A stretch of 64,000 nt of DNA from Hydractinia symbiolongicarpus (lineage: Eukaryota). The stretch covers positions 16,096,214 through 16,160,213 of the forward strand of contig NC_079887.1 of the NCBI RefSeq assembly GCF_029227915.1, read 5' to 3'. Below the pieces are notes generated by a model that was not told where the DNA came from, did no database searches, and saw only the letters and a list, made by a program, of their open reading frames with translations. A program made the position numbers and the translations under genes. Below are positions 3,788 to 64,000 of the stretch, piece by piece (the first letter of the stretch is position 1; each line of letters begins with the position of its first letter).

Positions 3788-5197
3788 CTGATTTGTGTTC
3801 AATTGTGTTACATTTTCTTTCTCGTTATCAAGTTGATTCTTATTTATTTTAAACTTTGTGTCATGTAACATAGTGCTTGAAGGTAATGGGGGTGGAGGCG
3901 GTGGTGGCGCGGTGGGTGGTATCGATAGTGAATTGCCACCGTGATTAAGCGAAGGCGGAATAGGAAACATTGTTTCATGTTGCTCAACACACGACTGTCT
4001 TTTCTTGACATAATGTTGGTTTTGATCAGCTGCCACTTGTCTCCATTTTCTTTCGGCAACCCTTCGTGAAAATCTTCGCACAGATCCTTTGGCCTCTAAA
4101 AAGTAACGTAAAACAAAACACAAGAAGAAGAAGAAGAAGAAGAAGAAGAAGAAGAAGAAGAAGAAGAAGAAGAAGAAGAAGAAGAAGAAGAAGAAGAAGA
4201 AGAAGAAGAAGAAGAAGAAGAAGAAGAAGAAGAAGAAGAAGAAGAAGAAGAAGAAGAAGAAGAAGAAGAAGAAGAAGAAGAAGAAGAAGAAGAAGAAGAA
4301 GAAGAAGAAGAAGAAGAAGAAGAAGAAGAAGAAGAAGAAGAAGAAGAAGAAGAAGAAGAAGAAGAAGAAGAAGAAGAAGAAGAAGAAGAAGAAGAAGAAG
4401 AAGAAGAAGAAGAAGAAGAAGAAGAAGAAGAAGAAGAAGAAGAAGAAGAAGAAGAAGAAGAAGAAGAAGAAGAAGAAGAAGAAGAAGAAGAAGAAGAAGA
4501 AGAAGAAGAAGAAGAAGAAGAAGAAGAAGAAGAAGAAAAATAGCTGGAGTTGATAAACCTGTACTAGGTTAAATGTATTGTTCAAGAAAATAGTTTTTAA
4601 GATTAATTTTAAATACGTTAAAAGATTGCAAGTTTCGAATTTGAACAGGAAGACTGTTCCAGAGAACTGAACCAGAAACCCAAAAATTACGAAAAAGGGT
4701 GGGCGCTTAATAAAGAACTGGATCAAAAACAAAAATTACGAAAAAGGGTTAGCGCCTAATCCAGAATTTAAGGTAGTGTCATCCGATGAACTAACAACAC
4801 AGCAAATTTATAAACAATGATTTATTTATATATAAAAATATATATTACCTTGACCATAATCATATGACTTAATAACATTTTCTTTAAATTCTAAAAACTT
4901 TTCCTTAGCCTCCCTAGATGTTAAGGCACCCAGCTTTTCTTGACTATACAACCATGACATCATTTGAAACTTAAGAAATCCAAAAAAACCATTATTATTT
5001 TCAACCTCATCCTTTTTTCGTTTCGCAACAACGTCGTAAAATGCGGTCGGATTATCCTCCAAGTAATCCAACAATTCTTTTAATGCATTTTCTGTTTGAA
5101 CGCTACTTTGTCTCTCAAACTCCAGCGTGGAAATACGAGAACAATATGACTTGGGAGCAGGGGAAGGTGCATCAAATTCTCCATACACACCAGCCAT
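3788..5197 (-). CDS. Uncharacterised spliced protein-coding gene: exon 1 4849-5197 (ATG at 5197-5195) and exon 2 3788-4095; further 3' exon(s) not located
   Basis: The exon-1 ORF is MAGVYGEFDAPSPAPKSYCSRISTLEFERQ...KENVIKSYDYGQ and ends at a good donor (CAAG|gtaatat). Exon 2 starts at a strong acceptor (tttacgttactttttag|AGGCC) and continues in the same reading frame (phase 1, G|AG = Glu). It encodes EAKGSVRRFSRRVAERKWRQVAADQNQHYVKKRQ...PPTAPPPPPPPLPSS...NTNQ and ends at donor AATCAG|gtatat. The phase agreement across the intron supports a real gene. I recognise no family for it. Confidence 0.5.
4122..4537. repeat. (AAG)n / (CTT)n microsatellite, ~139 uninterrupted units (416 bp)
   Basis: This is a perfect AAG trinucleotide run. 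It produces the poly-R, poly-K, poly-E and poly-F artefact ORFs in the six-frame track. It lies inside the 4096-4848 intron of the minus-strand gene and ends 26 nt from the 3' splice site. Confidence 0.98.
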
Positions 5198-6910: not shown

Positions 6911-8100
6911 GCCTTAGTTATTCCATGTTTCTCAAAAATACTTGAATGTACAATGTACTTTTTGAATGCAAATGATATTCTTTATAAAAATCAATAGGGT
7001 TTTCAAGCTGGCCATTCTACTGATCATGCAATTCTTTTGAACTGTTGATAGAGGAAAAACAAATTACTAAACAATTATCTGTGGAGTTCCCACAAGGTTC
7101 AATATTAGGACCACTTTTATTCCTTATATATTTATATGATATTAACAAAGCTTCATTATCTTACATTCAATTCTATTTGCAGATAATACTAATCTCTTTT
7201 ATGCACATATATAAAAAGATATTAAAACACTATATTTCACACAGTGAATATTGAACCCTCCCATGTGTCAGAGTGGTTTAAAGCAAACAAACTTAAATAT
7301 TTCAAAAACAAGGTATTTACATTTTTCCATAGACTAAATAAAAAGATGAAGTAACATTAAATTTGCAATGTTGCAATGAGAATAACTACAAAAAATAGAC
7401 TATCAAGTCCATGCAATTACGTTATGAATGGTTCCGCCCTTAGAAATACAAGTTGCGAAGAAGATCTTGGTGTATTAATAGATAACCATCTAACATTTTC
7501 AGACCACATTTCATCAAAGGTTAAAAAAGCAAATCAGATTATGGGCTTGATTCGAAGGACATTTGACTATATGGATAATGAAAACTTTGTCTTGTTGTTC
7601 ACATCCCTTGTCAGACCACATATTGAGTATGCTAACACAGTATGGTGTACATTCTTGAAAAAGGACATGTTGATTGTGGAAAACGTACAACGTAGAGCTA
7701 CGAAAATGCTCCCAGGTATGAAGGATTTAACATATGATGAAAGGCTCAGGTTACTGAAACTTCCCTCATTATTTTACAGAAGAAATTGAGCAGATATGAT
7801 TGAGACATTCAAGATAACTAATAATGTTTATGACGAAGCTGTTACTGAGAACTTGTTATTGCCAAAATTGTCTAACACCAGAGGACACAATAAAGCACTT
7901 TTTAAAAGAAGCTGTAACTTGGATTTGCGAAAGTTCTCATTCACGAATCGTGTAGTGACTTTATGGAATTCTTTACCTGAGGACACAGTGTCATGTAACA
8001 CAGTGAATCAATTTAAAATGAAGCTAGACAAATTATGGTCTGATAAAGACCAATTATATTATTATGATCTGGATATTACTAATTTCATATATTAGATAGG
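6911..8100 (+). mobile_element. Decayed non-LTR retrotransposon (LINE) fragment: RT domain plus C-terminal region, frameshifted
   Basis: RT motifs are read across frameshifts: SNYRPALVIPCFSKILE, FPQGSILGPLLFLIYLYDINK, and the C-terminal signatures LRLLKLPSLFYRR / MIETFKIT ... RVVTLWNSLPEDTV ... FKMKLDKLW. A 20-nt poly-T at 8137-8156 follows. Confidence 0.8.
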
Positions 8101-9639
8101 GAGGAGTGTCTTTGTGAATGGGGTGTTTGAACAATTTTTTTTTTTTTTTTTTTTTTGAGATTAACCTTACTAATTTCGTTATTATCATACTCTTTTCTTG
8201 TTTGTTTGTGTTTGTTTGATTTTTTTGCGATCATTATTTTTTTTTAATTGCCTTTTTTTCAAATTTTATTTACAATCTAAAGCAAAGTTAAATATTTTAC
8301 CAATTACATTTTAAAAAGTATTAAAAATTTAAAATCATAGTATTTCATGCCTGGTACACAGATGTATTCGAAATCGCAGTGTAAATGTATTTACTCAAAT
8401 TGACTGAGAAGCCTCCTTGTTCAATTGCTTTTAGGTAGCTGCTATTAAATTTATTCAAATCTTATCCATGTTCTTTACCAAGCTTCCATTCTTGTCCAAG
8501 GAGTTTATTATTTAATTATTTTTATTTTCTGTTTTTTTTTGTCTTTTTATTTTTTTTTATCTATTTATTATGAGCTGACCCTAGAGGTTGTTGTAACCTG
8601 AAATTATTGTCAGAATACACTATACTATACTATACTATTAAAACTGCCTAATTTGTCTGTTAATAATAATTAAATATCAGTCATTTAACATTGTATTATG
8701 ATTTAATTTTTATATTAGTTTGTTCCCTGTCAATTAGGGGCCAGAAGTTTTTTTCATGCAGCGTTATATCACTATTAATAAGGAGGTGGTTATAATTATT
8801 TTTTATTATTATTGTTATTTCGCTGTTAAAGAATATACATTTTTTGTAAAAATAAATACAAAACTATAACTATTATAATGTAGAATCTAGAAATATGTGA
8901 TTGTATATGTATCCTTAGGTGCAACTAGAGTAGGTAAAAATGGCAGGAGCAAGAAGAAGACTTTAGTAGTCTTATCACTAAGCCCCTAAACCTTCTATAA
9001 AGATTAGCACAGAAGATACGGATGTTGTGCAATTAAACTGTTTTGCGATCTAAAACAGATGTAGTTAATAGTTTGCCTTTGGTTTCTGTTTAAATTTGTG
9101 AAGTGGTGAAAGAGTTTTCATGTCTTTGTCAAGGAATTTGTTCCATAGTATAGGGTTCTAATTAGCAGTTCGCAATTTGCAATTTGTGAATCAAAATGCC
9201 ATTTGCCATCGAATCACTTTGCGAAGAAAATGATAAAATTGCGAATCGAATATTTTAAGTGGCGACTGAAATGCTGTTTTAGATCGCATTTTAAGAACTT
9301 AAGAACGAAGAACTTAGTGATATTGTATAATTACTTCTGGGTTGACAGAAGCTGTTACACGAGAATCGGGAAGGATACTTATTTTGTATCTTCCAAAACA
9401 TTGTTTAAAATACTCGGATTGTTCTCAAGTTTGAACATAAAAATAAGAGTCTGATAAATGGATAAATAGTTGGTATACATTTCATACATTTAGTTTTTGC
9501 AGTAAAACTATGGAGTGAGTGTATTTGTCAACATTTAAAGTAAGTTTGATTGCATGTTTTAGTTTATTTTGCAACACTGGTGCTGCACCAATGTTGGCAA
9601 ATATAATTTAAATATAGCAGTGTATACAAGAAAAATATA

Positions 9640-20001: not shown

Positions 20002-20526
20002 TCAAAGAATTATTACTTCCTGCTTGTCAGTACAAGAAAGACATGGCTTTGTATTTTCTTGTCTGCAGTACTGGTGGTCTCCCTGACTTAACTGATCAGA
20101 TGTGCCGGGTGACAAGGTACCCTTTTTGGCCTTTTTAGGACGTGGCTGATACCGCTGTCGAATGGGTTTTCTTCGAGGAACAGGCTCTTTAAAATCATAC
20201 ACAAGTTTTAATGATGGATACAGATTACTGCAGGTTGGTTCTGCATCCTCAAAGTGCTCACTACAAACCCTGTCACTTGGATGTGGACTCCACAAAGATT
20301 TATCATCTTTTTCTCTCTTAACTCTCCGTACCCATTCCAAATGATTAGCTAAATAACGATTGGTACTGGGAAAACAAAACAGGCGATATGCTGGTGGTTG
20401 ACAGGAGGCACAAGTTTCTTTAGTTTGAGGCTGACTATTATGCTCTGTGCAAATACTTTTCCTCCACTTTTCCAATTTCCTTGTGTTATTCATACACCCA
20501 ACAACAGCACAATTAGCAGGACCCAT
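20002..20526 (-). CDS. THAP-domain protein ORF (C2CH zinc finger), probably transposon-derived
   Basis: Within ORF 20002-20619, starting from the internal Met, the protein is MGPANCAVVGCMNNTRKL...RLFCFPS...ANHLEWVRRVKREKDD...WSPHPSDRVCSEHFE. This matches the THAP signature C-x2-C ... FP ... W ... C-x2-H-F. The C-terminal part is basic and low-complexity. Confidence 0.5.
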   Translation of the reverse strand: MGPANCAVVGCMNNTRKLEKWRKSICTEHNSQPQTKETCASCQPPAYRLFCFPSTNRYLANHLEWVRRVKREKDDKSLWSPHPSDRVCSEHFEDAEPTCSNLYPSLKLVYDFKEPVPRRKPIRQRYQPRPKKAKKGTLSPGTSDQLSQGDHQYCRQENTKPCLSCTDKQEVIIL

Positions 20527-20912
20527 CTCGATAAGACTAGAAAGCCAAACAAATTCTCTCACTACTTTACTCACAACACTGCCAGAAACTGTAACTGCCA
20601 GAGCGGTTTGTTTACCCAAAACTCTGCCCAGCTCTCCAAATAAAAATGGTAGCCATTAGGTTGAATTGGTGTATAAATATAGATGAAGCTGTGCGCATTA
20701 AGGCAAAGAAGGGTCGTTGTCTTCCCACATTCCACCTGCCCAATGTTCTGTAACTTCACTCCCTGCAGATAATATTAAGCGTTCAGAGTATGTGAATTTG
20801 GAACTAATACTCCCACCATCATTAAATTCGTTGTATGTCCCAGATGACGAGGGTGAGTATGATCTCAATATAAGAACAGCAGACTGCAACCCACAACTCT
20901 CACTTAGTAGTA

Positions 20913-22714
20913 ATGTTTTGGGTAGGCCTAAGATTAAGGACTTCGTCTCTTGGTGCAAGTGAGAAAGCTGGTCACCCATCAAATTCTTTTGTCACCCAGT
21001 TTGCCAACCAATACGTCTTCTCCGCTGTGTGTGCCTTTGACAAACCGCATAGGCTGCAGTTAGCTAATGATCCTTTGCGACGATGGGACCAGATTGACGA
21101 CTTGCTCGTTACTTATAATTTGGGAGAGGCTTTCTTGCTAACTAAATCGTATGCCTCTTCCACCTCTGCCTTGACATTAACTGCTTACGGCAGCAGGAAC
21201 ATTTTGCAACAAATTTTACTAGGTTCCCCCAAAGGTTCAGAATGCTTTCCAGTACTTTCCCGGCAGCGGCTTCTATCAGGTAAAATTTTCATCAAATCCC
21301 AGAGTGTGCTGGCAGTTTAATAAAGGCCTGTATTGTTCCAACAGATGTCCCTTTCCACACAAGTGCACCTATTGTTCCAGAAATCATCCAGCACACCGTT
21401 GCTTATTTAGGCCCTTTTTTCCAATTAAGTCCTCTGATTGCACTTCTGTAATTGTTTTATTGTTGTGCAAATTATTACTTTTGCATCCCAATCGGATCTT
21501 AGTTAATTTTATCCTTATGGGTTCAAACTAGGGTGTCAAACTGGATAACTTTTGACATCTACAACTAATAACAAATCCTCTATGAAATATTCGAGAAAAG
21601 TTGATAAGACTATTTTAAAAGAGTTGCCCCTCCTCTGATTACCCTCCTCTTCCAAATTTTTATTGCTCCCCATTGGGTGCAGCTCCTAAAAAGATGATAC
21701 AATTCAGGTAATTTTAGACCTTTCATCAACACAGTGATTTTTAGTTAACGATGACATCTCTAAGGAATCTTATTCGGTTACATACTCATCATTTGAGAAT
21801 GCCATTGACATGGTACGTGAACTTGGCTGGCACTGCTTTTAAGCAAAACAGATGTCAAACATGCTTTCCAGTTGTGTCTGGTTCACCCAGATGACTGGCA
21901 TCTACTTGGCTTCAAATGACAGGAAAGATAATTTTTCGATGTTATTCCTTTCAGTGGGAGGTCATCACCATTTAATCACTTGCCAGACTTAGTTGACTGG
22001 GTTCTTTATTACCTGGCTGCCATCTGGCAGCTGTTTCATTATCTAGATGACTATATTACAGGTGATCCGCTAAAAGCAGCATGCCAGGATATTGTTTATT
22101 TAATTCAAAAGGTCCTTTAGCCCTAGAGAAAGATTAATGCTCCATCCTGCGTCCTTACTTATATAGGTATTGAAATTAATACCACTCAATTTATTATCCA
22201 TCTATCTAAGAAAAATTTTTATGCTGTTTTGTCCCTGTTGAGAGTGTGAAAAGGAAAACTGCAGGAAAAAGGAGCAACTGTCACTCATAGGATTGTTGTC
22301 TTTTGCATGCAAAGTCCTAAATGTGATTGTATTTTCTGCATATAGGTTAATTTACCTTTCTACCACAGTAAGTAGACTTCACCATCACATTACCATTATA
22401 TCAGAATCCAGCAAGGACATTGAGTTGTGGTTGATTTTCTACTAAGTTGGAACAGGATGGCAGTCATCCAAATAAAAATTACGTCAGAAACTATAAATAT
22501 ATTTACGGACGCTTCCATGAGTGGTTTAGGCAGTTTTTATGATGGAAAATGGTTTTCCATTTCTTTTCACAACACCAATAATTACAGCATTGCCTTGCTC
22601 GAATTACTTGCTGTTGTTTTAGCAGTACATATGTGGGGTGAGAAGTGGTCTAATACCATTTATACAGAACAGGTCATCATTTATACAGACAACAAGCTCA
22701 TAGTTCACATATGA
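20913..22714 (+). mobile_element. Decayed retroelement remnant: Cys-rich knuckle, RT-like block and RNase H
   Basis: A zinc-knuckle-like segment is CSNRCPFPHKCTYCSRNHPAHRC (21304-21531). An RT-like block LPNFYCSPLGAAPKKDDTIQVILDLS...AKQMSNMLSSCVWFTQMTGIYLASNDRK is consistent with an RT domain; the class is not assigned. An RNase H block with TDAS reads IFTDASMSGLGSFYDGKWFSISF...ELLAVVLAVHMWGEKW. There are multiple stops. Confidence 0.6.
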
Positions 22715-38016: not shown

Positions 38017-38699
38017 TCAAAAATAAAGAAACAAAGCTATCAGATTTAGCTGATTTGAAAAAATAAGCGGAATGCTAGACAGAAATCAACCTTGATAACA
38101 AGCCAAATGTTATTAAAGGCATCGTGGTATGGATACCCTTTTTACACTTTACATCCTTATGCTTATCTACGAGATCCAGCTGAAGATGATCCAGATGACG
38201 ATGATCCAGATGAAGATGATTGGGATAACGATGATCAATGAGGACTAAATATTTTTTGTAACTTGTCAAAGCCACACAAAAAAAACATCCGATCTACCAC
38301 TTCATCACATGCTCTGGAGGTATTTCTACATCTTCGGGAATCACCATTAATTCTTCCGCAACAAAACTACGCCCTGGTCCGTCTTTTAAATAATACATGA
38401 CACGACTGTTTGGTTCTGCCACAATGCAAACCAGTCTATACATCTTTTTGCTCCAAAAGGCATCGGTTGCACGTCTTTTTTGGTCTCCATGCTATTCTTC
38501 AGGTTTTAACTAATATAAATACAACCCATCTTCACGCAAAGGTTTTTCATCGGGATACTCTACTTTTCACAAGTGGTACAACCTCCATCTTGATGGCTTT
38601 TGATGGTTTCATACCGATCATTGCGGTCTTGGTGTTGTTGAGGCCTTTCACTATAGTGTACAGGTTTTTTTACCCATATGCTACTTTGATCATCACTAA

Positions 38700-39035
38700 C
38701 TAACATTTTTGTGCGTTTTGGGGCTTAAAAAGTCTCTCCGCAAGCACTTTGTTGTATGACTCGACAAAAGCTGTAAATGTATGATGATACTTGGTTTTAA
38801 CTTGTTTAATCTCCACCCCTTTACCTTCCAAAAGTTTTGCGACGTCTGATTTAAAATCTAAACCATTATCACACTGGAAGGTTTTGGGATAGTGTAAAGG
38901 TCCCTTTTTGTAAATATCCTGGATTCTCTCTGCAACCTCAGCTGCTTTTTTTGTACGTATAGGTCTCGCTACTTTATATCTTGAGGCGACATCGATGCCT
39001 GTCAGGATATATTTGTACGTGTTTCCATAAACTTT
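38700..39035 (-). pseudogene. Retroviral-type (rve) integrase catalytic core fragment
   Basis: The minus-strand translation is VYGNTYKYILTGIDVASRYKVARPIRTKKAAEVAERIQDIYKKGPLHYPKTFQCDNGLDFKSDVAKLLEGKGVEIKQVKTKYHHTFTAFVESYNKVLAERLFK, ending in a stop, with frameshifted continuation to ~38300. This matches the rve core pattern (D...TGIDV.SRY...P...K...QCDNG.EF......T..Y......E..N..L). No N-terminal zinc-binding domain was found. Confidence 0.7.
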
Positions 39036-39123
39036 TTATTTGGTTTTGTAATTGTAAAATGGGGATAATCAATCTTTTTGGGGCCTCGAAGAAAATCCAA
39101 ACACGGCTTCCAGCACTTTGAAT

Positions 39124-39500
39124 ACATGTATATGGATACGGACAGTGTATATTTTGTGATCTCTAGTGAAAATCTTCGTGATATTGTTGGACCTAAGCTG
39201 CTCTAGAAGTACGAAAAAGATGTAAAAAACTGGCTCGTGACTCATAAATACTCAGAGCGAACGCCAGCATTTTTTAAGCTTAAGTTTATTGGTATAAAAT
39301 GCTTGCGTTGACTGCAAAATGTTACTTTTGCAGTGGAAAAAAAGGGTGCAAAGTATAGCTGTAAAGGGATGTAAAAAATACAATATGATCTTAATTGGGG
39401 CCGTTATATGAATGCATTGCAAAATGGCCTTGATAAGGCGCGAAATACTGGCTTTAGAATACATGACCAAGGTACAAAACGTACGAGCAGCAGAAGTTAG
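39124..39500 (+). pseudogene. Family-B DNA polymerase C-terminal fragment (motif C and the K.Y region), on the opposite strand to the rest of the polymerase
   Basis: The plus-strand translation is YMYMDTDSVYFVISSENLRDIVGPKLL...FKLKFIGIKCLR*LQNVTFAVEKKGAKYSCKG. YMDTDS is the Y-x-DTDS motif C. KGAKY matches the K.Y motif. Confidence 0.65.
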
Positions 39501-39948
39501 GATTATCCGCATACTATGACAAGTGCATAGTTTTAGATGATGGTATACACACCTCTCCGCTTGTGTTTTAAAGTTTTTGTAGAGTGTAGTCTGTGTTTGA
39601 TCAAGCACACTAGACAATAAATGGAAGTTTGTTTATATTTTATTAATTCTATCTCATATAATTTTACTACTCTTTTTTCTAAATTATAGACGTATAATAA
39701 ATAAAATGACTGAACTTGCTAACATATGTGATATTGTTGATACCCCCGCAGAAGCCTTACAACCGCCGGAAAAAGTAGTAGAAAAACGTCAAGCTTTGAA
39801 AACTGATCTACGTAAAGGCAAAGGGCATCTTTTACCAAAAAAGTGTACTAAAGGAAAATTGTTTAGAAAGCGCCGTCGCAAAAGTCTTGGACCACGATTT
39901 CTAGAAATGGTGGTCGCACAATAAATTGAAACGAAATTGGACTACGCA

Positions 39949-41142
39949 TTATTGACCCGCCTCCCGCTTCATAGGAAAGTCATATACCAGGGTAGAAGGG
40001 TACAGCATATTGGCATCGTAACCTAGTAAGGTCTTCATCATTTTAGCTTTTTTACCATAAATATGTGATCTGATTCGCGTCTTTCCACGTTTGTGGTATC
40101 TACAAAATACAGTCGCTTGATCACCTACCATACTTGTCTTTAACAGATCGTAAGCTTGATTTTTGCAACATTTTACGCATTCATTTTTTATTGTCTTACA
40201 TTGTTTGCATGCCTTGCCCTTTTACTTTTTTCACATGTGTGTATACAGGGCTCACCAGGTCCATACAATTCGCACTCAGGGTTCTTCTCTAATGCTTTGT
40301 TCAACACGTATCGCATCGAAACTTCAGGGATATTTACCGCATCTTTTAAAATATCAATTTCATCATTGTAGTATTTTTCTCTCGTTTTGTCAACTGCTTC
40401 GATAAAGGGCTCAACGTCGGCAAGATTGTACTCGCGCAACCAATCCATCATCGTGACGCAGCCACGTCTATAAAACTCTTTTCTAAATTTTGTTATTCGG
40501 TGCGTGAGATGGATTTCTTTTTAAGACTGCTGTAAAAGTCACAGTGCTTCACAGGTCTTGCGTGGTTTAACTTATCATAGCTCGTTAACCACTCGTAAGG
40601 AAATACTAATTTCTCCAGTCTGCAATCAAGTGATTTACACCACCTATCATAACTCAAGTCTAGTGATGGAAAATTTTTAATATCAAGAAATTTAAACCTT
40701 GATATTGTCAAAAACATATAATTATTCGCCTTTCGTGCAACAAAAATAATATTGCTCACTTGCTCATCTTCTTCGTTTTTTCAGAGATTTTCTCCACAAA
40801 TTTTTTTTTAATCAGGTTAAGGTCATATTTTCAAGAATTAAATCAAAATACAGGCACCTGATTTAACCATTCGTCCCATGCTTTTTTAAACTTCATTTGG
40901 TAACATGTCAAAATCATCAGTTTTTGGATACATTTTTCCACTACAATCAATTGTTGCCTGCGTTTAAGATCGTCGACAAATTGACCAATCAAGATATTTG
41001 GATCTTTGTGCTCGATAAACGTTGGTTTACCATTAAAATTATCATGAACCGCAACACTGACCGCCTTTTGCTTTGATATATAAGTTAGGTCCTTTGTGCA
41101 CTGTTCGTTCACAATTTCTGCAGCAGCCTCAAAATCAAACAC
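39949..41142 (-). pseudogene. Family-B DNA polymerase N-terminal part: 3'-5' exonuclease motifs and polymerase motif A, frameshifted
   Basis: ORF 40843-41142 begins MFDFEAAAEIV, which is Exo I (FDFET-type), and contains VHDNFNGKPTF, which is Exo II-like. ORF 40188-40451 contains EKYYNDEIDIL, which is Exo III (Y-x3-D)-like. ORF 39949-40131 contains LLGYDANMLYPS, which is motif A (D-x2-SLYPS). Motif B was not found. Confidence 0.65.
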
Positions 41143-41500
41143 GATGTAGCCTGGGTATGGTGTAATTTTTTTTTTAAAAGATATTTTTTTTGTGGTGGTT
41201 TCTCACATTCCCAAACAGATACCACGTTGTACCCAAGCTCTTTGTTGATTCGTTCGTTCCACTTTGTAGCTATGTAACGACCTTCATCGGTATTTGTTAT
41301 TTCTTTATGCAGGTGCAACCGTGCCATTTACAACCATGATATTGATAGATTGTTTTAGTTGAGGGTTCATATCCATCTACTTTCCAGAGCTCTTTTCCAT
41401 CTTCGTTTCTGGTCACACGTTCACCACCATGACGACACAATGCATGATGTATATGTAAACCAGTTTCTTCGCTCATATATTCAATCCACCGGCAAGCCAC
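41109..41500 (-). pseudogene. Vsr-like (very-short-patch-repair / DUF559, PD-(D/E)XK fold) endonuclease domain directly upstream of, and overlapping, the PolB Exo I ORF; contains one frameshift
   Basis: ORF 41297-41500 reads ...GKELWKVDGYEPSTKTIYQYHGCKWHGCTCIKK. ORF 41109-41327 reads ...DEGRYIATKWNERINKELGYNVVSVWECEKPPQK. Both align to the E. coli Vsr core (VDEYRCVIFTHGCFWHHHHC ... ELGWRVLIVWECA). The two ORFs overlap in different frames. Confidence 0.65.
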
Positions 41501-44500
41501 GTAACTTAATGCTGACTTTTCACCATAAAAAAATGTTTATGTGTTGAGTTGATGTATAAATTTCTTTTCGTTACAAAACGATCTTCGTTTTTCCTCCAGT
41601 GCATGTATCATCGACCGTATTTCTGATGAGATTTTTGTGCTGTGTAAATACCTGCTTACACGCCACACATTCCCAACCCTTGCATGAAACATCAATATTT
41701 TTGATGCAAAAACAGTGGCCTGTATGCATTCCAAGGTTGATCTAATCCTTGTTGGTGTTGGTTTTGCCCATATATCAGCATCCATGATGCTTTTTCTGAG
41801 CATGTTTTGGGCTCGTAAATCCTAATGTTTATCTTGAATTTTAGCGATATTCCTTCAATATCCACTAACCTCGTTGCACGCACGTCTTTTTGTTTAAGCT
41901 TGTCATTTTGATAGTATTTCCTAGCCAGTTTCAATGCATCTTTTATAAGTCGCTTCTTGTAACCTAGGTAGTGTAGTGCTAGACATCTCCGCATGCATAG
42001 GTTGTCGGTGCGTTCGTCTTCTCCATCGATCGCGTAAATACATCGCTTTTTTCTTAACCAATCTGGTTAAGGACTGCATCCTAGCAGGGGGCCGTTTGTT
42101 GAAATAATCTTAATCTGAGCGTGTATTAAAACAACCTTTCCGCAGTAGGAGCCTGGTGTGTGGATGGTTTTTTCTGCTGGAAGGTAGGCATTTCCCCAAA
42201 ACTCATAGTCATCCAAGTCTAGCCGCTGCGTCTCGCATCCGTCAATAATGGTTATAATGGGTCCACGTTTCACCTCCTCCTTTGTGTACAACGCATTCAA
42301 AACTATAAACTACATTGGTTCTCATGTTAATGTTAGTGTGTAATTTTTCCCATAATTGGCTCTGTCAGCTGTCCGTTCAAATTACTGTTGATTCTCCATG
42401 TTTTGACTAGCGTTCCATCTTCCAACATCTTCATGTCAAGCTCATCAAATATGTGTTGGATATCTTCAATACATGTGGCTTCCTTCTTTTTTCGTGGGAA
42501 TATGTGTTTGATATCTTCGATTCCATGATATTCGTCTTGTATGTAGTCTTCCTCAGCTTCGATATCATCGTGCAGCTTCGTCCCTCTCGAAAGTTGCTCC
42601 TTTGCTTTTTAATAATCGGTAATAGTATCCCGCACACTCTGCAATCGAGCGGTAAGAGAATCACGAGTTGATGCTACTGGAGCTGATACAGCGTTGTATA
42701 ATTGTGTCATTGCATTTCTGAACCAACTCATTTTATTATATGAAAAAATTTTATCAATATTTTTTTACATGGACAGTTTGTTGAATTAGGGGAGTTCCCT
42801 AACTCCACTTGCACATTGTGATGACGGCAACCGACATAATTTCTGTCGGATGACGTCGATTGTTGTTGAAGTTTTATGCCAACCTCGTCCCCAGGGCATC
42901 TTGTATCTTTTCTGACCCCGGGACGGCGATACGAACATGGCCCCGGAGGAGGCTGGCCCGATATGAAACCTGATTGGCGCGGATATGTCAAATAATTAAT
43001 GCGTCATACAAAACATTTTGGCGAGGCGGCGAGTCTGTGACCAACAGGAGGAAGCTGTTCGTATTAAAATGGCGGAGGAGGTGTATCAGCAGTATCAAGT
43101 TTTTTTCAAAGTGAAAAATTTAATAAAAAGCATTACTAAGAATGAGATTATAAAATAAGACATCATAAAGTAATACTGCTTACATGACAATATTTCAATA
43201 GCTGGGAATGTTTAATAAAGAACTATCAAGATAAGAACAAAAGAAAGAAACTCAACTTGTTTCCAAGTGGCCAGGTTTAATTTGCACCTTTTTGCAAAGA
43301 ATGATGTTGCATAAGATTGCTGCCCATGTCCTTTATAGACAAAATAATTTTGCACAAAATATCGAAAATGTTGTTTTTACAAAATATATATCTTTATGTT
43401 TTAAATTATATCAGGTTGTTATTAGTGGGCATGTTTTATTACCTTATATGCTTTGGTTCTATAAAAGATATAAAAAGCCAGTAGGTTAACCGTTGGAGCC
43501 ATTTTATCATTGAATGCACATTTACCCGGCCTAATTCAAGAAAATTCAAAGTGCAATAGCTTCAGTAAAAAAATAAAGTTATTGACTTGAAACTTGTTAA
43601 GGAGTACTTTTAAACCAATCTGATAAAGTATAATTTTTCACGAGGCATAAAAAATGTACAAAGCCATTTTAAGGAAGAGAAAAAGGTAGGAAGATTTTCT
43701 CAAACTGATTCTTGCTATGCCTTTTTTAACACGCTATGAAGAAATTTCAGAAAATCGAACTCAATCAAATTTGATTGAGCCCTCAATCAGGCATATGGTT
43801 AAATCCAGGATGTACTGAAGATGGTAGTAGATATTTAACAGCTCACCACTGTGATATATTATCTCAAGAGTTTTGATACAAATTACAAAGCAGTGAACAT
43901 AAAAAATAACAAAAAAAGTCTAAACCGAGTATATAGTTTATATAGCGTCCCATAACTTCAGTAGAAATTAAAATATTGACTTGAGATTTGGTATGATATG
44001 GTTTTAGATTGGTTTGATGAAATTGAGCCAAAAAATAGTTCTATTATCATCACACTTTTTGAGTTTTAGAATTTAGCCCTTTTCAGAGACTCTGATAAGC
44101 TGTTTCGACAGCATATCAATTTTGACCAAGATACAGATTCAGAAAATTTTAAAATCTATTCTAACCTCAGAAATAGGTCAGATAAGATTCAACCTAAAAT
44201 TATGCCAGTAAACAAAATATTTAGTTGCAAGGAATATCTCTTTGCTGATATCTTTTTGTGATAGGATGCTCTTATGAGAATACTGAATTAATCTTCACGG
44301 TTAGCTAGTTTGGCATTTTAAATATTTTCCAAGCAGAATGATAACAATAAATAGATGTATATATCAATAAAAAATCGATATTTGAACAGCAGCAGAATTT
44401 TGATGAGCTCTAAAAAGTGCGAATTTATGAAACTAATTTTGGTCCAAAATCCCCAAAATAATTTCCTCAAAAAATTATTCTAGAGACATTTTTTTCTCAA

Positions 44501-45851: not shown

Positions 45852-48800
45852 CGAGAGAGTTTTGCCTTTCGTTTCAATTGGCAGCAAGAGAGAAGCGATG
45901 ACACAAGCAACCAGAAGTGCGGCGTAAACACCCACCACCAAATAAAACGAGTGATGAATTAAAACCTAGTGACGAAGTTTATAACCTTGATTGTCAACTT
46001 GAGATTGATGCAAAGAATTCATTTGCAACTTTCTTGATTTTATTCTTAGTTTTGTCAAAAAGCAATATTTATAACAAAACTCAGAATTAAAACAAAAAAA
46101 ATAAACCGAAAGCAATGCTTCAGAATTAATACACAGCAAAATATGAAATAAAACCGCACCTGTGCAACAAAGGGGGTTGCCATTGCACCCACCCTGGCAA
46201 ACATACTACAAGCACCCAAACCAACAGCACGTACGTTCGTTGGTAACACCTAAGAAAGAAAACAAGTAATTTAACTGCCGATAACTCGAACCTCTTTCGA
46301 TTACTCGAATTTCCAGCAACTCAGTCCGACTATTTAAGCGGTCTCCTGGGCTAAAATACTTGTGATAACTTGATCTCCAAAGATAAAATGCAGAAAAATC
46401 CTGTGCAAGTTATTGTTTTTTAAAAAAATAAATTACTTAATTAATAGAGATGTAATCTTTCCTGCCCTAATAGACTTCGAAGACATAAGAGCTTATTTGT
46501 AATGATTGTACACAAGGTATTGTTTCTGTTTCACAGTCAACGTAAAAAAGAAGAAAAAGGAAATAAAGTCAAGTAAAAGAATTCAAATTCCATAAAACAA
46601 AGCATATTGGTGTCCTTTTGGAGTGCGTAGGGTTTAAAGTAGCGAATTTTGAAAAAATTTGTTTTTTTACATGGGGGTCTTTTTAACACCGGTCTTTAAT
46701 GGCGGAAGGGCGATTTTTGAAATCGGCGCAATAAGGGCAAGCGTAAGTGGGCCCGGTGGTAAATTTGGACCGGCGTTATAAGGGTCGATAAGGTGGCATA
46801 CTGTAATTAAACACTAGCCGAATATTTCAGGTTTTCAGCTAGTGTTTTACGACAGCGCATTTTATGCTGACCTTTGATGGGACACAAAAAAATACAAGAA
46901 AAAATGAAGCTCTTACTTCAGGTGTATATACATATGCAGCTTGAAAACTACCAGTAACAAAGCCGCGAACAGCAAATATGAAAATCACCGACATTGTTCT
47001 AAAGCAAAAATAAAAACAAATATAATTACTAGTACAATCATAATACAATCCTCGAAATTCGTTTGGTGTTGTTAAGTTTCGTACAGATTCATTAAAAATA
47101 TTCAACAAATTCACAATTTTCGAAATAATTAAAGCTAGCCGCTAGTCTGTGAAAAATTCCACGTGAGATCTGCCGTGTCTATATCTCCCACATCGCTATT
47201 TCGCGCATCCTTGCCCTTTGTTAAGATAAGTAATGAAGTTTACTTGGAAGGGGATTAATTACTATGAATATTGATGCGATTATAATGGCGTTTTCGATTA
47301 CAAAACCCCTGTTTTTAATTGGCTCACAGACAAACAAAAAGACAGCGAATATTATAATATAGTCGTTAACTCGTGGAAAAGTCAACGGGTTCGCCCGTCA
47401 GCACGTTATTTACTCTGCATGGTACCGAGAATGAAGTTTCGGCGCAGCCATTTTGAACAGAATAGGTCTATTATTATAGAGATTCAGGACCAAATTTGCA
47501 TGAAACTTTCTTCTATTAAAGAAGATTAAGTTTTGGGGTTTGCACGTGACTGATTGCAAATATGACTTCTTGGGTCTGCACGTGACTGATTGCAAATATA
47601 ACTGCTTACCGTCCCGTGCATATAGCTAGTAACATGAAAGAGATGGAAGCTAATCCAAACAACACAGCAAGCGTTTTCTTCCTGCCGATCCATTCGATTA
47701 AAATGATGGCGAGCAATAAACCTGGAAACAAACATAAAATTTTCTACCAATGTGCTACTGTATTTACTTTCTGAGAAAAATTTTATTGAACGTCCGCCTT
47801 ATTTTGAAAATAGAGGGGGTGGCGCTCACTTAAAGAGAGAGAAGACGTTCAAAGGGAGGGGGCGGTTGGGGTGCTTATTTTGCTTATGTAAAAAAAATAG
47901 TATACCTGGAAACTCTGCGATACTGGTCAACATAAAATCGACGTAATCTTTATTTGATAATTCTTTGCACGTTGTTATTGTATTTGTGTCATCTAAAAAT
48001 ATGGATGGATGAATAAATGTACGAAATAAAAATGAAATAAATGAATAAAATAATTGGTGAATAAATGGAATGAATGAATAAATGAAACAATAATCTAAAA
48101 TATGTGTGGGGATGGATGAATGAAAGAATGAATGAATAAAGGAATGAAAGAATGAATGAAAGAATGAATGAATAAAGGAATAAATAAAAGAATGAATAAA
48201 AGAATAAATAAAAGAATGAATAAAAGAATGAATAAAGAATAAATAAAAGAATGAATAAAAGAATGAATAAAAGAATAAATAAAAGAATGAATAAAAGAAT
48301 AAATAAAAGAATGAATAAAAAAATAAATAAAAGAATGAATAAAAGAATGAATAAAAGAATGAATAAAAGAATGAAAAAAAGAATAAATAAAAGAATGAAT
48401 AAAAGAATGAATGAAAGAATAAATAAAAGAATGAATAAAAGAATAAATAAAAGAATGAATAAAAAAATAAATAAAAGAATGAATAAAAGAATAAATAAAA
48501 GAATGAATAAAAAAATAAATAAAAGAATGAATAAAAGAATGAATAAAAGAATGAATAAAAGAATGAATAAAAGAATAAATAAAAGAATGAATAAAAGAAT
48601 GAATAAAAGAATAAATAAAAGAATGAATAAAAGAATAAATAAAAGAATGAATAAAAGAATAAATAAAAGAATGAATAAAGAATGAATAAAGAATGAATAA
48701 AAGAATGAATAAAAGAATAAATAAAAGAATGAATAAAAGAATAAATAAAAGAATGAATAAAAGAATAAATAAAAGAATGAATAAAAAAATGAATAAAAGA

Positions 48801-51800
48801 ATAAATAAAAGAATGAATAAAAGAATAAATAAAAGAATGAATAAAAGAATAAATAAAAGAATGAATAAAGAATGAATAAAAGAATGAATAAAAGAATGAA
48901 TTAAAGAATAAATAAAAGAATGAATAAAAGAATAAATAAAAGAATGAATAAAAGAATAAATAAAAGAATGAATAAAAAAATGAATAAAAGAATAAATAAA
49001 AGAATGAATAAAAGAATGAATAAAAGAATAAATAAAAGAATGAATAAAAGAATAAATAAAAGAATGAATAAAAGAATAAATAAAAGAATGAATAAAGAAC
49101 GAATAAAAGAATGAATAAAAGAATGAATTAAAGAATGAATAAAAGAATGAATAAAGGAATGAATAAAAGAATGAATAAAAGAATGAATAAAAGAATAAAT
49201 AAAAGAATAAATAAAAGAATAAATAAAAGAATGAATAAAAGAATGAATTAAAGAATAAATAAAAGAATGAATAAAAGAATGAATAAAAGAATGAATAAAA
49301 GAATGAATAAAAGAATAAATAAAAGAATGGATAAAAGAATAAATAAAAGAATGAATAAAAGAATGAATAAAAGAATGAATAAAAGAATGAATAAAAGAAT
49401 TAATAAAAGAATAAATAAAAGAATGAATAAAAGAATGAATAAAGAATGAATAAAAGAATGAATAAAAGAATGAATAAAAGAATAAATAAAAGAATGAATA
49501 AAAGAATAAATAAAAGAATGAATAAAAGAATGAATAAAAGAATGAATAAAAGAATGAATAAAAGAATAAATAAAAGAATGGATAAAAGAATAAATAAAAG
49601 AATGAATAAAAGAATGAATAAAAGAATAAATAAAAGAATGAATAAAAGAATGAATAAAAGAATAAATAAAAGAATGAATAAAAGAATAAATAAAAGAATG
49701 AATAAAAGAATAAATAAAAGAATGAATAAAGAATGAATAAAAGAATGAATAAAAGAATGAATTAAAGAATGAATAAAAGAATGAATAAAGGAATGAATAA
49801 AAGAATGAATAAAAGAATGAATAAAAGAATAAATAAAAGAATAAATAAAAGAATAAATAAAAGAATGAATAAAAGAATGAATTAAAGAATAAATAAAAGA
49901 ATGAATAAAAGAATGAATAAAAGAATGAATAAAAGAATGAATAAAAGAATAAATAAAAGAATGGATAAAAGAATAAATAAAAGAATGAATAAAAGAATGA
50001 ATAAAAGAATGAATAAAGGAATGAATAAAAGAATGAATAAAAGAATGAATAAAAGAATAAATAAAAGAATAAATAAAAGAATAAATAAAAGAATGAATAA
50101 AAGAATGAATAAAAGAATAAATAAAAGAATAAATAAAAGAATGAATAAAAGAATAAATAAAAGAATGAATAAAAGAATAAATAAAGGAATGAATAAAAGA
50201 ATAAATAAAAAAATGAATAAAAAAATAAATAAAAGAATGAATAAAGAATAAATAAAAGAATGAATAAAAGAATGAATAAAGGAATGAATAAAAGAATGAA
50301 TAAAAGAATGAATAAAAGAATAAATAAAAGAATAAATAAAAGAATAAATAAAAGAATGAATAAAAGAATGAATAAAAGAATAAATAAAAGAATGAATAAA
50401 AGAATGAATAAAAGAATGAATAAAAGAATGAATAAAAGAATGAATAAAAGAATGAATAAAAGAATAAATAAAAGAATGAATAAAAGAATGAATTAAAGAA
50501 TAAATAAAAGAATGAATAAAAGAATGAATAAAAGAATGAATAAAAGAATGAATAAAAGAATAAATAAAAGAATGAATAAAAAAATAAATAAAAGAATGAA
50601 TAAAAGAATAAATAAAAGAATGAATAAAAGAATAAATAAAAGAATGAATAAAAGAATGAATAAAAGAATGAATAAAAGAATGAATAAAAGAATGAATGAA
50701 TAATAAACGAATAAACAAACACGACGAACTCACTTTTATTGGGATGACATCCGTTTAAACCGGTTTGAAATATTTCAGTAGTCAGTAACACAATACCATA
50801 ATACGCAAACGCCGAAGTAAACCTGAGAAAATGAATTGAAGAACATCTGTAGGAAATTATATAACGTGATGTAGTCAAAGGTTGTTAAAAAACATGTTAA
50901 AAAATAATCAGACATTACATTGTAATTAAGCTGCTGATAAAAATTATTTTAATAACTTTAATGTGACTCTTCTCAGTCGACAGGAGCGATCTTACTCATT
51001 TCCTGAATGTAGCAAATTTGTTTGCGTCCGAATCCTGGTATATTACATTTAAAGTCACGTAGTTAGGCGGTGGTGCCGTAATTAGGAACATAAAGCGTGC
51101 CAAAGTGTCATTTTAAGAAAAATATTTAAGGTGTTCATTACCAGTTCCCTTGTACCTTACGAAGTAGAAAATTGATGATCGCGGAATTAACACGAATGAC
51201 TAAAACTACTTATAAAAAAGAAATTGATAAACGTGATTCAGCTGAAGTACTTACTATAAACATTAAAATATATTTATCTTTATTCTGAGAAAGGGTTCAT
51301 TAACAACCAGTTTCTCTTGCTTTCTTCAAGACGTTTACAATATCAGCTGCCCTGCAGCCTACCCTAATCACATTAAGTGAGTGAACCGTGTCAGGACGAT
51401 ACTAATTTTTTTTTCGTTAATCAAAGAAGAGCGAAATACGCGTATTTGAGCTTTGTATTATGACTGCTAGAAAAAAATATTTTTTTAAACTTTAATTACA
51501 GGTTTTAAATTAACTAGTAACTTTTTATATTTAAGGACCTGATACACTTGTATAATATTACTGAAATATACTTTATACTAGTATATAGTTGCAACTACTT
51601 GTCGCCCTTGTTTACCGTGATATGACAGTTGTTCTTTCAAATCTGATACATATGCACCCCTTATTTTCCAAAGCCATGATTAGCCCCAACACCAACCTTG
51701 ACCCCAGGACTGGTTCTCTTTTTATAAACCCTGGGCTCGAGGTTGCACCAACACGCGAAGTGCACAATGAAAGGATACTCAGTGCGTTTTATCTGATCAC

Positions 51801-58450: not shown

Positions 58451-59556
58451 AAGTGTAAATGTTGGTGTACATCAGGGTTCTGTACTTAGTCCTTTGTTGT
58501 TTGTTCTAGTCTTAGAAGCGCTGTCGATGGAGTTCAGAACAGATTGTCCATAGGAGTTATTGTATGCAGATGATTTGGTTCTCATAGCAGAGTCGATGGA
58601 AGAATTAGTTGAAAAGTTTGAGAAGTGGAAGAAAGGACTAGAAGAGAAAGGGCTAAAGGTAAACACAGCAAAGTCTAAAGTCATGATTAGTAGCATTGCA
58701 GCCAAGTGTGACCTTGTAGTTGGAAAGTGGCCTTGTGGAGTTTGCAGGAAAGGGGTTGGTAGTAACTCAATTTTTTGTCAGACTTGCAAGCATTGGATAC
58801 ATAAGAAGTGCAGTAGTATTAGTGGAAGGTTAAGAGCTGACATTCAGTTTGTATGCAAGCGTTGCAAAGGTGAGATTATAGAGAATGAAGTATTTCCAGC
58901 TGTAATGATGTACAACAGTGGCTCCTTAGAGATAGTTGAGAACTTCTGTTACTTAGGTGATATGTTGGGCAGTGAAGGGGGTGTTGGAAGAAGTGTTACT
59001 TGCAGGATAGGTTCTGCTTGGAGAAAGTTCAGAGAGTTACTTCCTTTGATGACTAGCAGAGTCCTGTCAATTGAGGTAAAAGGTAGGTTGTATGAGGCCT
59101 GTGTAAGAAGTGTTACGTTGTACGGTAGTGAGACATGGGCAGTGAAGCAGGAAGATCTTGGCCGTTTAGAAAGGAATGATATGAGAATGGTTATAGGTGG
59201 ATGTGTAATGCCAGTCTGAGAGACAGAAAGAGTTCAGATGAGCTAAGAAGCAGGCTAAGTCTCCGTAGAATTAAAGATGTTATCCAGATAAGAAGATTGA
59301 ATTGGCTGGGGCACTTGAAAAGAATGGAGGAGGATAATCAGGTAAGGAAGTGTAGAGACTTGATAGTTCCTGGGGCAAAGCCCAGAGGCAGACCGAGAAA
59401 GAATTGGCAGGAGGTTATAAGGACAGACTTGATACAGAGGAAGTTGAGTTTAGATCTAACATAGATCAGATTGAAAGAGGGTCATTAATATACCCCGTCC
59501 AACCCATGCTAGCATGGAAAACCGACGTTAAGCCGAGAATGATGATGATGAGAATT
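58451..59556 (+). mobile_element. 5'-truncated LINE copy 1: RT C-terminal motifs, PHD-type zinc finger and basic tail, with an (ATG)n 3' end
   Basis: Motifs present are VHQGSVLSPLLFVLVLEALSMEFRTDCPWELLYADDLVLIAES, the PHD-like CGVCRKGVGSNSIFCQTCKHWIHKKCSSISG...CKRC, then ...RLNWLGHLKRMEEDNQVRKCRDLIVPGAKPRGRPRKNWQEVIRTD. There is a frameshift near 59200. The 3' end is atgatgatgatgatg at 59541-59556. Confidence 0.85.
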
Positions 59557-62500: not shown

Positions 62501-62696
62501 TTTGCACAATTGAAAATTGTGAAAAAAATTCTGTTTGTCGGTGAAAATAATGTGGTATTGATTCTTGAAATGTTACTAAATTTTTAATGCATTGAACATG
62601 AAAAAAATATCAGAGGACAGCGAAAAACGTAATCAAAATTACGTAAACCAACCAACCAACCAAAATTAAAACTTTGAGGTGAAAGACATTTATATC

Positions 62697-64000
62697 ATCA
62701 TCATCATCATTCTCGGCTAAACGTCCGTTTTCCATGCTAGCATGGGTTGGACGGGGTATATTAATGACCCTCTTCCAATCTGATCTAGACTGTGTTAGAT
62801 CTAAACTCAACTTCCTCTGTATCAAGTCTGTCCTTATAACCTCCTGCCAATTCTTTCTCGGTCTGTCTCTGGGCTTTGCCCCAGGAACTATCAAGTCTCT
62901 ACACTTCCTTACCTGATTATCCTCCTCCATTCTTTTTAAGTGCCCCAGCCAATTCAATCTTCTTATCTGGATAACATCTTTAATTCTACGGAGACTTAGC
63001 CTGCTTCTTAGCTCATCTGAACTCTTTCTGTCTCTCAGACTGGCGTTACACATCCACCTAACCATTCTCATATCATTCCTTTCTAAACGGTCAAGATCTT
63101 CCTGCTTCACTGCCCATGTCTCACTACTGTACAACATAACACTTCTTACACAGGCCTCATACAACCTACCTTTTACCTCAATTGACAGGACTCTGCTAGT
63201 CAAGAAAGGAAGTAACTCTCTGAACTTTTTCCAAGCAGAACCTATCCTGCAAGTAACACTTCTTCCAACACCCCCTTCACTGCCCAACATATCACCTAAG
63301 TAACAGAAGTTCTCAACTATCTCTAACGAGCCACTGTTGTACATCATTAAAGCTGGAAATACTTCATTCTCTATAATCTCACCTTTGCACCACTTGCATA
63401 CAAACTGAATGTCAGCTCTTAACCTTCCACTAATATTACTGCACTTCTTATGTACCTAATGCTTGCAAGTCTGACAAAAAATTGAGTTACTACCACCCCT
63501 TTCCTGCAAACTCCACAAGGCCACTTTCCAACTACAAGGTCACACTTGGCTGCAATGCTACTAATCATGACTTAAAACTTTGCTGTGTTTACCTTTAGCC
63601 CTTTCTCTTCTAGTCCTTTCTTTCCACTTCTCAAACTTTTCAACTAATTCTTCCATCGACTCTGCTATGAGAACCAAATCATCTGCATACAATAACTCCC
63701 ATGGACAACCTGTTCTGAACTCCATCGACAGCGCTTCTAAGACTAGAACAAACTACAAAGGACTAAGTACAGAACCCTGATGTACACCAACATTTACACT
63801 AAATTCATCACTAAGTGAATCGTTAATCTGACACAACTTCTAGCATTGCTGTACATAGACTGTACCATCGTAACTAGCTATCATCCACACCTAATTTTCT
63901 CATAACCCACCAAATAACTTTACGTGGCACTCTATCAAAAGCTTTCTCTAAATCTACAAAGGCAAAATAGAGATTCTTTCTCTTTCCTAAATACTTTTCC
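62697..64000 (-). mobile_element. LINE copy 2, inverted relative to copy 1; it reaches further 5' into the RT domain and runs off the window end
   Basis: Across 62610-63780 it is ~95% identical to copy 1 and carries the same PHD finger and GRPRKNW tail. Its ORF 62610-63347 is intact through the region where copy 1 is frameshifted. Upstream on the minus strand it reads ...DEFSVNVGVHQGSVLSPLLF. The (CAT)n 3' end is at 62697-62712. Confidence 0.85.

Follow-up and report, generated by a model that had tools for sequence, protein, structure and literature searches.

The stretch of Hydractinia symbiolongicarpus DNA analysed here (64,000 nucleotides, hereafter the window) contains, between positions 42704 and 38231, what its sequence identifies as a dead and rearranged piece of a cnidarian Polinton/Maverick element, and the segment of it that resembles the endonuclease Vsr derives from the DNA polymerase of that element. 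The explanation that best accounts for the observations jointly, to which a probability of about 0.88 is given, is that the relic is dead, that the segment descends from a true Vsr-family domain that is integral to the polymerase of its relatives, that this domain is a predicted nickase and that its origin is of the homing-endonuclease type. The presence of a Vsr domain in a Polinton polymerase has been known since 2006, and the finding is correct yet ordinary.

The relic keeps most of the gene of a protein-primed family-B DNA polymerase (pPolB) and part of an rve integrase gene (Table 1). When the polymerase of an intact relative (P0121) was compared with the window by tblastn, it was collinear with positions 42704–40000 of the minus strand, with at least nine frame changes and at least seven stop codons in the pseudogene, with residues 960–1214 (about 255 amino acids) deleted from the window copy, and with the remaining C-terminal residues inverted, the inverted fragment containing motif C (YMDTDS, 39129–39155 on the plus strand). 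The same layout was obtained by tblastx against a second relative, the locus L001. Exo I, Exo II, motif A and the inverted motif C are the polymerase motifs that are left. The N-terminal region is spread over three frames with stop codons present, and Exo II (NQVPVF*FNS*KYD, 40863–40822) includes two in-frame stops, while the integrase remnant retains its DDE core at 39011–38757. The first-pass annotation had envisaged a local polyprotein with overlapping ORFs; judged from these disruptions, the window copy is instead a decayed pseudogene, and its Vsr domain is non-functional. Between 30 and 50 kb of the window no inverted repeats, terminal ones included, were found beyond one 25-nt pair with 80% complementarity, which is expected of an internal fragment and is uninformative on the intact family.

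Table 1. Features of the Polinton relic in the window (positions in the window; aa, amino acids).
Feature	Position	Strand	Evidence or remarks
pPolB N-terminal region, upstream of Vsr domain	41516–42704	-	tblastn, P0121 aa 29–445; tblastx, L001
DNLCxxRC motif, present as CIYAIDG	42042–42022	-	Within the pPolB N-terminal region
C2H2-like zinc finger	41720–41694 and 41675–41646	-	GHCFCIKNI and WECVACKQVF, respectively
Vsr-family endonuclease domain, disrupted	41199–41515	-	Motifs HIHHALCRHGGE, VDGY, YHGCKWHGCTC, VWECE
Frameshift 1, inside Vsr domain	41297–41309	-	1-nt loss; TAA stop after ...HGCTCIKK
Frameshift 2, Vsr–Exo I linker	41184–41191	-	A8 homopolymer (T8 on plus strand)
3'-5' exonuclease remnants	40233–41190	-	Exo I FDFEA 41139–41125; further frame changes
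Polymerase (palm) domain start	39994–40191	-	Ends at motif A GYDANMLYPS 40023–39994, where homology stops
Inverted polymerase C-terminal fragment	39117–39562	+	P0121 aa 1215–1366; 3 stops, 1 frame change
Polinton rve-family integrase remnant	38231–39082	-	Pfam rve E 1.9e-5; tblastx to rve gene of L001

Both of the motif strings that had been quoted as the Vsr signature of the minus-strand translation were found, and the domain lies where it had been placed (41100–41500), its actual extent of 41515–41199 reaching slightly beyond that span. The first minus-strand frame holds HIHHALCRHGGE (41455–41420), VDGYEPS (41380–41360) and YHGCKWHGCTC (41341–41309), the second holds TNTDEGRY (41297–41274) and VWECEK (41216–41199), and the third holds ISFKKKITPYPGY (41184–41146) and FDFEAAAE (41139–41116). 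In full, the frames read ...SALSYVACRWIEYMSEETGLHIHHALCRHGGERVTRNEDGKELWKVDGYEPSTKTIYQYHGCKWHGCTCIKK followed by a stop, ...TNTDEGRYIATKWNERINKELGYNVVSVWECEKPPQKK, and ISFKKKITPYPGYIVFDFEAAAEIV..., the last being Exo I, and they are separated by two single-base frameshifts. The first of these was placed by comparison with CTCLKSRTNTDENRY of L001 and with P0121, and the second by matching ..KK-ISFKKKITPYP to KKKQSFKVQFRPYP of L001, by which the register of the linker is restored. FDFE follows 21 codons downstream of WECE, the end of which is at 41202, rather than after the 30 nt or so that had been estimated between the domain and Exo I. The overlap with the Exo I ORF that had been noted does exist, in that the tail of the second ORF extends into it (stop at 41109), but this tail is out of frame.

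The assignment of the domain to the Vsr family rests on profile comparisons and on a structural model. A frameshift-corrected query of 253 amino acids retrieved 133 proteins (best E 6.6e-86), and when a profile of 17 domain sequences (alignment A1) was compared with the PDB, the sole matches below E 0.01 were the Vsr structures 1cw0, 1odg and 1vsr (E 1.4e-3 to 2.1e-3). Alignment of A1 with E. coli Vsr by hhalign gave a probability of 94.7% and an E-value of 6.4e-8; the central part of the E. coli sequence used for this agrees with the PDB alignment. Vsr (PF03852) was also the only Pfam family matched by more than one member of A1 (6 of the 17, best E 1.1e-3). All of the Pfam Vsr matches of the relatives fell under the gathering score (17.5 bits for the polymerase P0238, against a cutoff of 27), and the domain therefore represents a divergent Vsr branch that escapes automatic Pfam annotation. 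The use of a profile was needed because the single corrected window sequence reached Vsr in the PDB at just E 2.2, behind two chance matches, and in Pfam the frameshift-corrected window fragments gave neither a Vsr nor a PolB match, only a weak one to rve. An AF2 model of the domain of a relative (pLDDT 83.6) had 1vsr and 1cw0_A as its top Foldseek matches (probability 1.0), with an E-value (2e-3) and a TM score (about 0.5) that are both moderate, and its best viral structural matches were giant-virus and phage endonuclease-like proteins (TM 0.7–0.8). These comparisons bear out the earlier proposal of a Vsr-like PD-(D/E)XK domain: positions 41515–41199 encode a true Vsr-family nuclease domain of the PD-(D/E)XK type, and by the homology statistics a chance resemblance is excluded.

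D52, C67, W69, H70 and C74 are invariant in A1. Among the invariant columns are the Asp of VDGY, the string G-C-x-W-H-G, a Cys further downstream and the first two residues of WECE, and MAFFT places these on Asp51, Cys66, Trp68, His69, Cys73 and the WEC117 motif of Vsr, which indicates that both the catalytic core and the zinc site have been retained. The D of VDGY is thereby the counterpart of Asp51 and the His of WH that of His69. In the HMMER and hhalign alignments VDGY falls opposite VD55EY of Vsr instead, and the Asp51 assignment relies on the equal spacing of 13 residues to the HGC motif together with the MAFFT alignment. The counterparts of the zinc ligands Cys66, His71, Cys73 and Cys117 are, in this order, an invariant Cys, Cys or His (Arg in one sequence), an invariant Cys, and Cys (His in two sequences), and the window copy has Cys at each of these four positions. 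Trp68, the residue of Vsr that intercalates into DNA, likewise has an invariant counterpart in A1. Three other residues of E. coli Vsr, Asp97, His64 and Phe67, have counterparts in the Polinton domain without clear conservation: the position of Asp97 by equal spacing (18 residues before the Trp of WEC) is an invariant Thr in A1 while hhalign sets a variable residue opposite it, that of His64 is H, Y or N, and that of Phe67 is K, Y, E, P or H. The domain further differs from E. coli Vsr, with which it shares some 20% identity, in an extra conserved H-I-H-H-A-x-C-G-H-G-G-E segment and in being part of a polymerase of 1200–1400 amino acids rather than a stand-alone enzyme of 156.

In intact relatives the Vsr domain is an in-frame and integral part of the protein-primed polymerase. 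Dozens of single ORFs combine a zinc-finger-like segment, VDGY...HGCxWHGC...WECE and Exo I at constant spacing, and an exhaustive profile search returned 6179 clusters at E ≤ 1e-3, including P0121 and P0155. An uninterrupted frame from Vsr through PolB, which the first-pass annotation had proposed to look for in paralogous copies, is present in both of these proteins, which are intact (P0121, 1366 amino acids with Vsr at 451–560; P0155, 1230 amino acids with Vsr at 328–451 and a Pfam DNA_pol_B_2 match at E 9e-14), are 39% identical end to end and have the same architecture. The complete Vsr motif and Exo I occur in one ORF in 98 of the 120 closest relatives of P0155 (96–99% identical), and 70 of these 120 are full length; a phmmer search of the PDB with P0155 matched no polymerase structure. 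Members of the P0155 family are very abundant: more than 1000 near-identical copies exist, in which the catalytic and zinc residues are kept. L001 has 67% DNA identity to window positions 42206–40014, and its polymerase keeps a single frame all the way from the N-terminal region to YMDTDS, broken by nonsense codons only. The order in intact relatives is N-terminal region, C2H2-like finger (a weak zf-C2H2 match, Pfam E 0.03), Vsr, a linker of 21–22 residues, Exo I–III and palm motifs. As single ORFs span both, the Vsr domain belongs to the polymerase, and the single polypeptide proposed earlier is thus found in relatives; the Vsr domain is not its N-terminal domain, because about 330–450 residues of the same ORF precede it. 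An OTU-like protease, which was suspected in the N-terminal region from the DNLCxxRC motif, was not adopted, as Pfam gave only otubain at E 0.037 in one protein of class B (the polymerases with Vsr at the exonuclease/palm boundary, below).

The same comparisons bear on whether the Vsr-like ORF might be a gene of its own or an unrelated insertion beside the polymerase, or a resemblance due to chance. The two Vsr halves and Exo I do occupy three frames of the window, and the window fragment taken alone is without a Pfam match. The breaks between the frames, however, are two 1-nt indels, the relatives encode all parts in one ORF at constant spacing, the homology statistics rule out chance, and no repeats flank the segment, such repeats having been named earlier as the mark of an unrelated insertion; the probability of this alternative is accordingly negligible.

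The attribution to a protein-primed Polinton polymerase, made earlier from the motifs, holds. Remnants of an rve integrase adjoin the polymerase in the window, L001 carries an rve integrase gene (7394–8287), the locus L002 encodes an A32/Zot-like ATPase at 20786–21244 (Zot E 1.9e-5, Pox_A32 E 3e-4), and L003 is a compact element that combines the intact PolB P0121 with a Pox_A32 ATPase (21178–21810) and an rve integrase. It is this occurrence of an A32-type ATPase and an rve integrase across the three loci that makes the Vsr-pPolB family a Polinton family. An A32-type packaging ATPase is absent from the relic in the window, and candidate ORFs for the major and minor jelly-roll capsid proteins and the adenain-like protease, among them one of 546 amino acids in L003 (15070–16710), had no Pfam match.

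The earlier supposition that no Vsr-like domain had been described in a Polinton polymerase is wrong, since such insertions were published in 2006 and in 2023. According to Barreat and Katzourakis (2023; PMC10328495), group I Mavericks are marked by an insertion of about 140 amino acids that is similar to bacterial Vsr, for which Kapitonov and Jurka (2006) are cited. A VSR domain was also reported in the pPolB2 of Polintons from the marine nematode Trissonchulus latispiculum and the molluscs Batillaria and Elysia, where it was found by HHpred and AlphaFold and superposed on 1VSR with a TM score of 0.63 (Jeong et al., 2023; PMC10748475). In these two accounts, polymerases with Vsr are reported for vertebrates and molluscs, and insert-less ones for insects and terrestrial nematodes (PMC10748475; PMC10328495). 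Other pPolB2s, of terrestrial-nematode and oomycete Polintons, have an HNH insertion for which a group I intron was proposed as the source (Jeong et al., 2023; PMC10748475).

The window family resembles group I in having an in-frame Vsr-family domain of about 110–140 amino acids in the PolB of an rve-bearing Polinton. The motifs H-I-x-H-A..GGE, VDG[YF], HGCxWHGC and WEC are common to the window family and to a set of polymerases with the sequence NPRDAFFGGRT (P0244, P0248, P0239 and P0279), and the two differ in the position of the domain, which is between exonuclease and palm in the latter and before Exo I in the former. We infer that it is the NPRDAFFGGRT polymerases that correspond to group I of Kapitonov and Jurka. 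The window family may belong to the same group as the pPolB2-VSR of Jeong et al. (2023), with which it shares a VSR domain in a Polinton pPolB and a comparable match to the Vsr structure; the window copy differs in being a pseudogene and in its cnidarian host, a phylum not listed there for pPolB2. The HNH insert of pPolB2 (Jeong et al., 2023) is similarly a small in-frame nuclease in a Polinton pPolB and a lineage marker, but its fold is unrelated (beta-beta-alpha-Me as opposed to PD-(D/E)XK-like). By analogy, the HNH and Vsr inserts together suggest a recurrent acquisition of polymerase-tethered nucleases.

For living elements, the domain is predicted to be a zinc-stabilised, Mg2+-dependent DNA-nicking endonuclease that is tethered to the polymerase, a prediction based on the conservation of the Asp51 and His69 counterparts and of the four zinc ligands. 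It would nick one specific strand at the ends or junctions of the element, or close to them, and this nick would either expose an end from which an integrated or concatenated template can be copied with a protein primer or serve to process ends before integration. That the present role of the domain is to provide a nick or free end for protein-primed replication, or to process ends for integration, is offered tentatively. Biochemical activity has, to our knowledge, not been reported for the Vsr domain of any Polinton, and we purely infer both the nicking role and its target.

A different role would be the canonical one of Vsr, which cuts one strand 5' of the T where deamination of 5-methylcytosine has left a T:G mismatch, so that in CpG-methylating hosts the polymerase could repair the DNA of the Polinton. 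This would fit the membership of the domain in the Vsr family and the invariant counterpart of Trp68, and the split between hosts with Vsr-bearing and insert-less polymerases loosely tracks CpG methylation, a correlation that is anecdotal. It is nevertheless rated as improbable, given that the counterpart of Phe67 is variable, that no counterpart of Trp86 was identified, that the identity to E. coli Vsr is just 18–22%, and that no partner cytosine methyltransferase is present.

A single Vsr clade was seen at three different positions of pPolBs, and its members also occur on proteins with zinc ribbons that are similar to homing endonucleases. Site A, before Exo I, is that of the window copy, P0121 and P0155. 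Site B, at the exonuclease/palm boundary and followed by NPRDAFFGGRT, is that of the class-B polymerases P0244, P0248, P0239 and P0279 (Tubulanus), in which the Pfam DNA_pol_B_2 match is split at profile positions ~206/210; one class-B protein is from Tubulanus polymorphus. Site C, after motif A, is that of P0238. The C-terminal domain of the zinc-ribbon repeat proteins P0230, P0241 and P0249 belongs to the same clade. Identity between the Vsr domains is 35% for site A versus site B and 35–40% for polymerases versus zinc-ribbon proteins, so that the zinc-ribbon domains are no more distant from those of the polymerases than the domains of the two main polymerase classes are from one another. 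The three sites, the zinc-ribbon kinship and the matches to viral endonuclease-like proteins suggest repeated capture of a module of the homing-endonuclease type, and the most likely origin of the domain is a mobile nuclease module of this kind that pPolB genes acquired on more than one occasion.

A more specific version, in which a mobile Vsr cassette, shared with zinc-ribbon proteins like the homing endonucleases of giant viruses, entered pPolBs independently at three or more positions, is conceivable and falls somewhat short of even odds. If it is true, the gain of a tethered nickase would be either an innovation in Polinton replication that arose repeatedly under selection or a gene drive that is still running between alleles of the polymerase, and the cnidarian relic would also widen the host range of the form with Vsr before Exo I.

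Such an origin raises the alternative that the Vsr module has remained a selfish homing endonuclease, which would cut pPolB alleles that lack the insert and spread by gene conversion with no benefit to the Polinton. This alternative draws on the occurrence of one clade at three pPolB positions, on its fusion to DNA-binding repeats of the zinc-ribbon type, an arrangement shared with free-standing homing endonucleases, and on the precedent of the pPolB2 HNH insert with its proposed group I intron source (Jeong et al., PMC10748475). On the other side, the domain is translated in frame as a segment of the polymerase, and the insert, at about 110–140 amino acids, is too short for the Hint domain of an intein. 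It also differs from the EDxHD homing endonucleases (I-Bth0305I, PDB 3R3P) in that it is made within its host protein and is not coded in an intron or intein, and the sequence profiles match Vsr proper and not the EDxHD family. Homing endonucleases typically decay after fixation. The catalytic and zinc residues are in contrast invariant across lineages that are only 39% identical and are kept in a family of more than 1000 copies, and their long retention fits usefulness to the element better than it fits a homing endonuclease. Ongoing homing is hence considered unlikely, and a nuclease that serves the element is preferred.

The three insertion sites and the occurrence on zinc-ribbon proteins could help to tell whether the module has been domesticated as a nickase for replication or homes selfishly, and the abundant intact families of P0155 and P0121 offer proteins with which the function of a polymerase-tethered nuclease can be probed. 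For the annotation of the window, the segment is a Polinton polymerase pseudogene with a known Vsr domain, not a new fusion. Adjoining the relic is a retrotransposon ORF that is 88–96% identical to Hydractinia symbiolongicarpus proteins.

The Polinton relic in the window, a dead fragment carrying a Vsr-bearing protein-primed polymerase (pPolB) pseudogene and an integrase (INT) remnant, has undergone a complex rearrangement, in which the C-terminal piece of the polymerase, with motif C, is inverted relative to the remaining gene and directly adjoins the integrase remnant, and in which, by comparison with the related locus L001, the palm/fingers region has lost ∼255 codons and the interval from PolB to INT ∼3 kb. 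At L001 itself, a small cysteine-rich ORF lies immediately 3′ of the polymerase stop. The second related locus, L002, lies on a 703-kb contig and has two decayed polymerase copies ∼2 kb apart, and this pair could represent either two Polintons, one nested in the other or lying side by side, or a palindromic duplication.

Coordinates of features in the window, related loci and polymerase proteins
Feature	Location	Strand	Details
D-(D/N)-x-C-x-x-R-(C/A/S) motif	window 42042-42000	-	
Same motif	P0121 ∼aa 255-275; P0155 ∼aa 165-180		also class B proteins
Polymerase C-terminal piece	window 39117-39562	+	150 codons; motif C YMDTDS
Integrase remnant	window 39082-38231	-	
Vsr-bearing polymerase copies	L002 3238-7040; 9190-12874	-; +	head to head
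Cysteine-rich ORF	L001 4346-4612		several CxxC pairs; same frame as polymerase
Retrotransposon ORF, two copies	window 58560-59219; 62610-63347	+; -	RT C-terminus and PHD finger; opposite orientation
THAP zinc-finger ORF	window 20002-20619	-	205 aa; Pfam E 7.7e-5
Minisatellite, 2.6-kb	window 48118-50697		12-mer GAATGAATAAAA, ∼216 copies, 92% matches
(AAG)n microsatellite, perfect	window 4122-4537		139 copies, 100% matches

The Vsr-like clade is found at other sites as well, being inserted between the exonuclease and palm domains in the class B pPolBs P0244, P0248, P0239, and P0279, and after motif A in the class C pPolB P0238. The same clade forms the C-terminal domain of three non-polymerase proteins built on zinc-ribbon repeats (P0230, P0241, and P0249), which show a likeness to giant-virus homing endonucleases. 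The N-terminal regions of the window's polymerase class (P0121 and P0155) and of class B share a further conserved motif that looks like a putative OTU-type cysteine-protease signature, the sole Pfam match to an OTU-type protease being otubain in one protein (E 0.037).

P0155, an intact relative of the window polymerase, belongs to an extremely abundant Polinton family, with relatives (P0400-P0518) from ENA eukaryotic assemblies and 1124 member sequences in one 90% cluster. The majority of copies encode an intact protein of 1230 or 1261 aa, and the family has apparently been active recently. It would suit experiments as a source of intact Vsr-pPolB.

Elsewhere in the window, the two retrotransposon ORF copies are 88-96% identical to H. 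symbiolongicarpus proteins, a match that places the host in this lineage, and the THAP ORF is contained in the sole stretch with GC > 0.40. The minisatellite has a GC content of 15% and extreme strand skew, and gives rise to spurious long ORFs in several frames.
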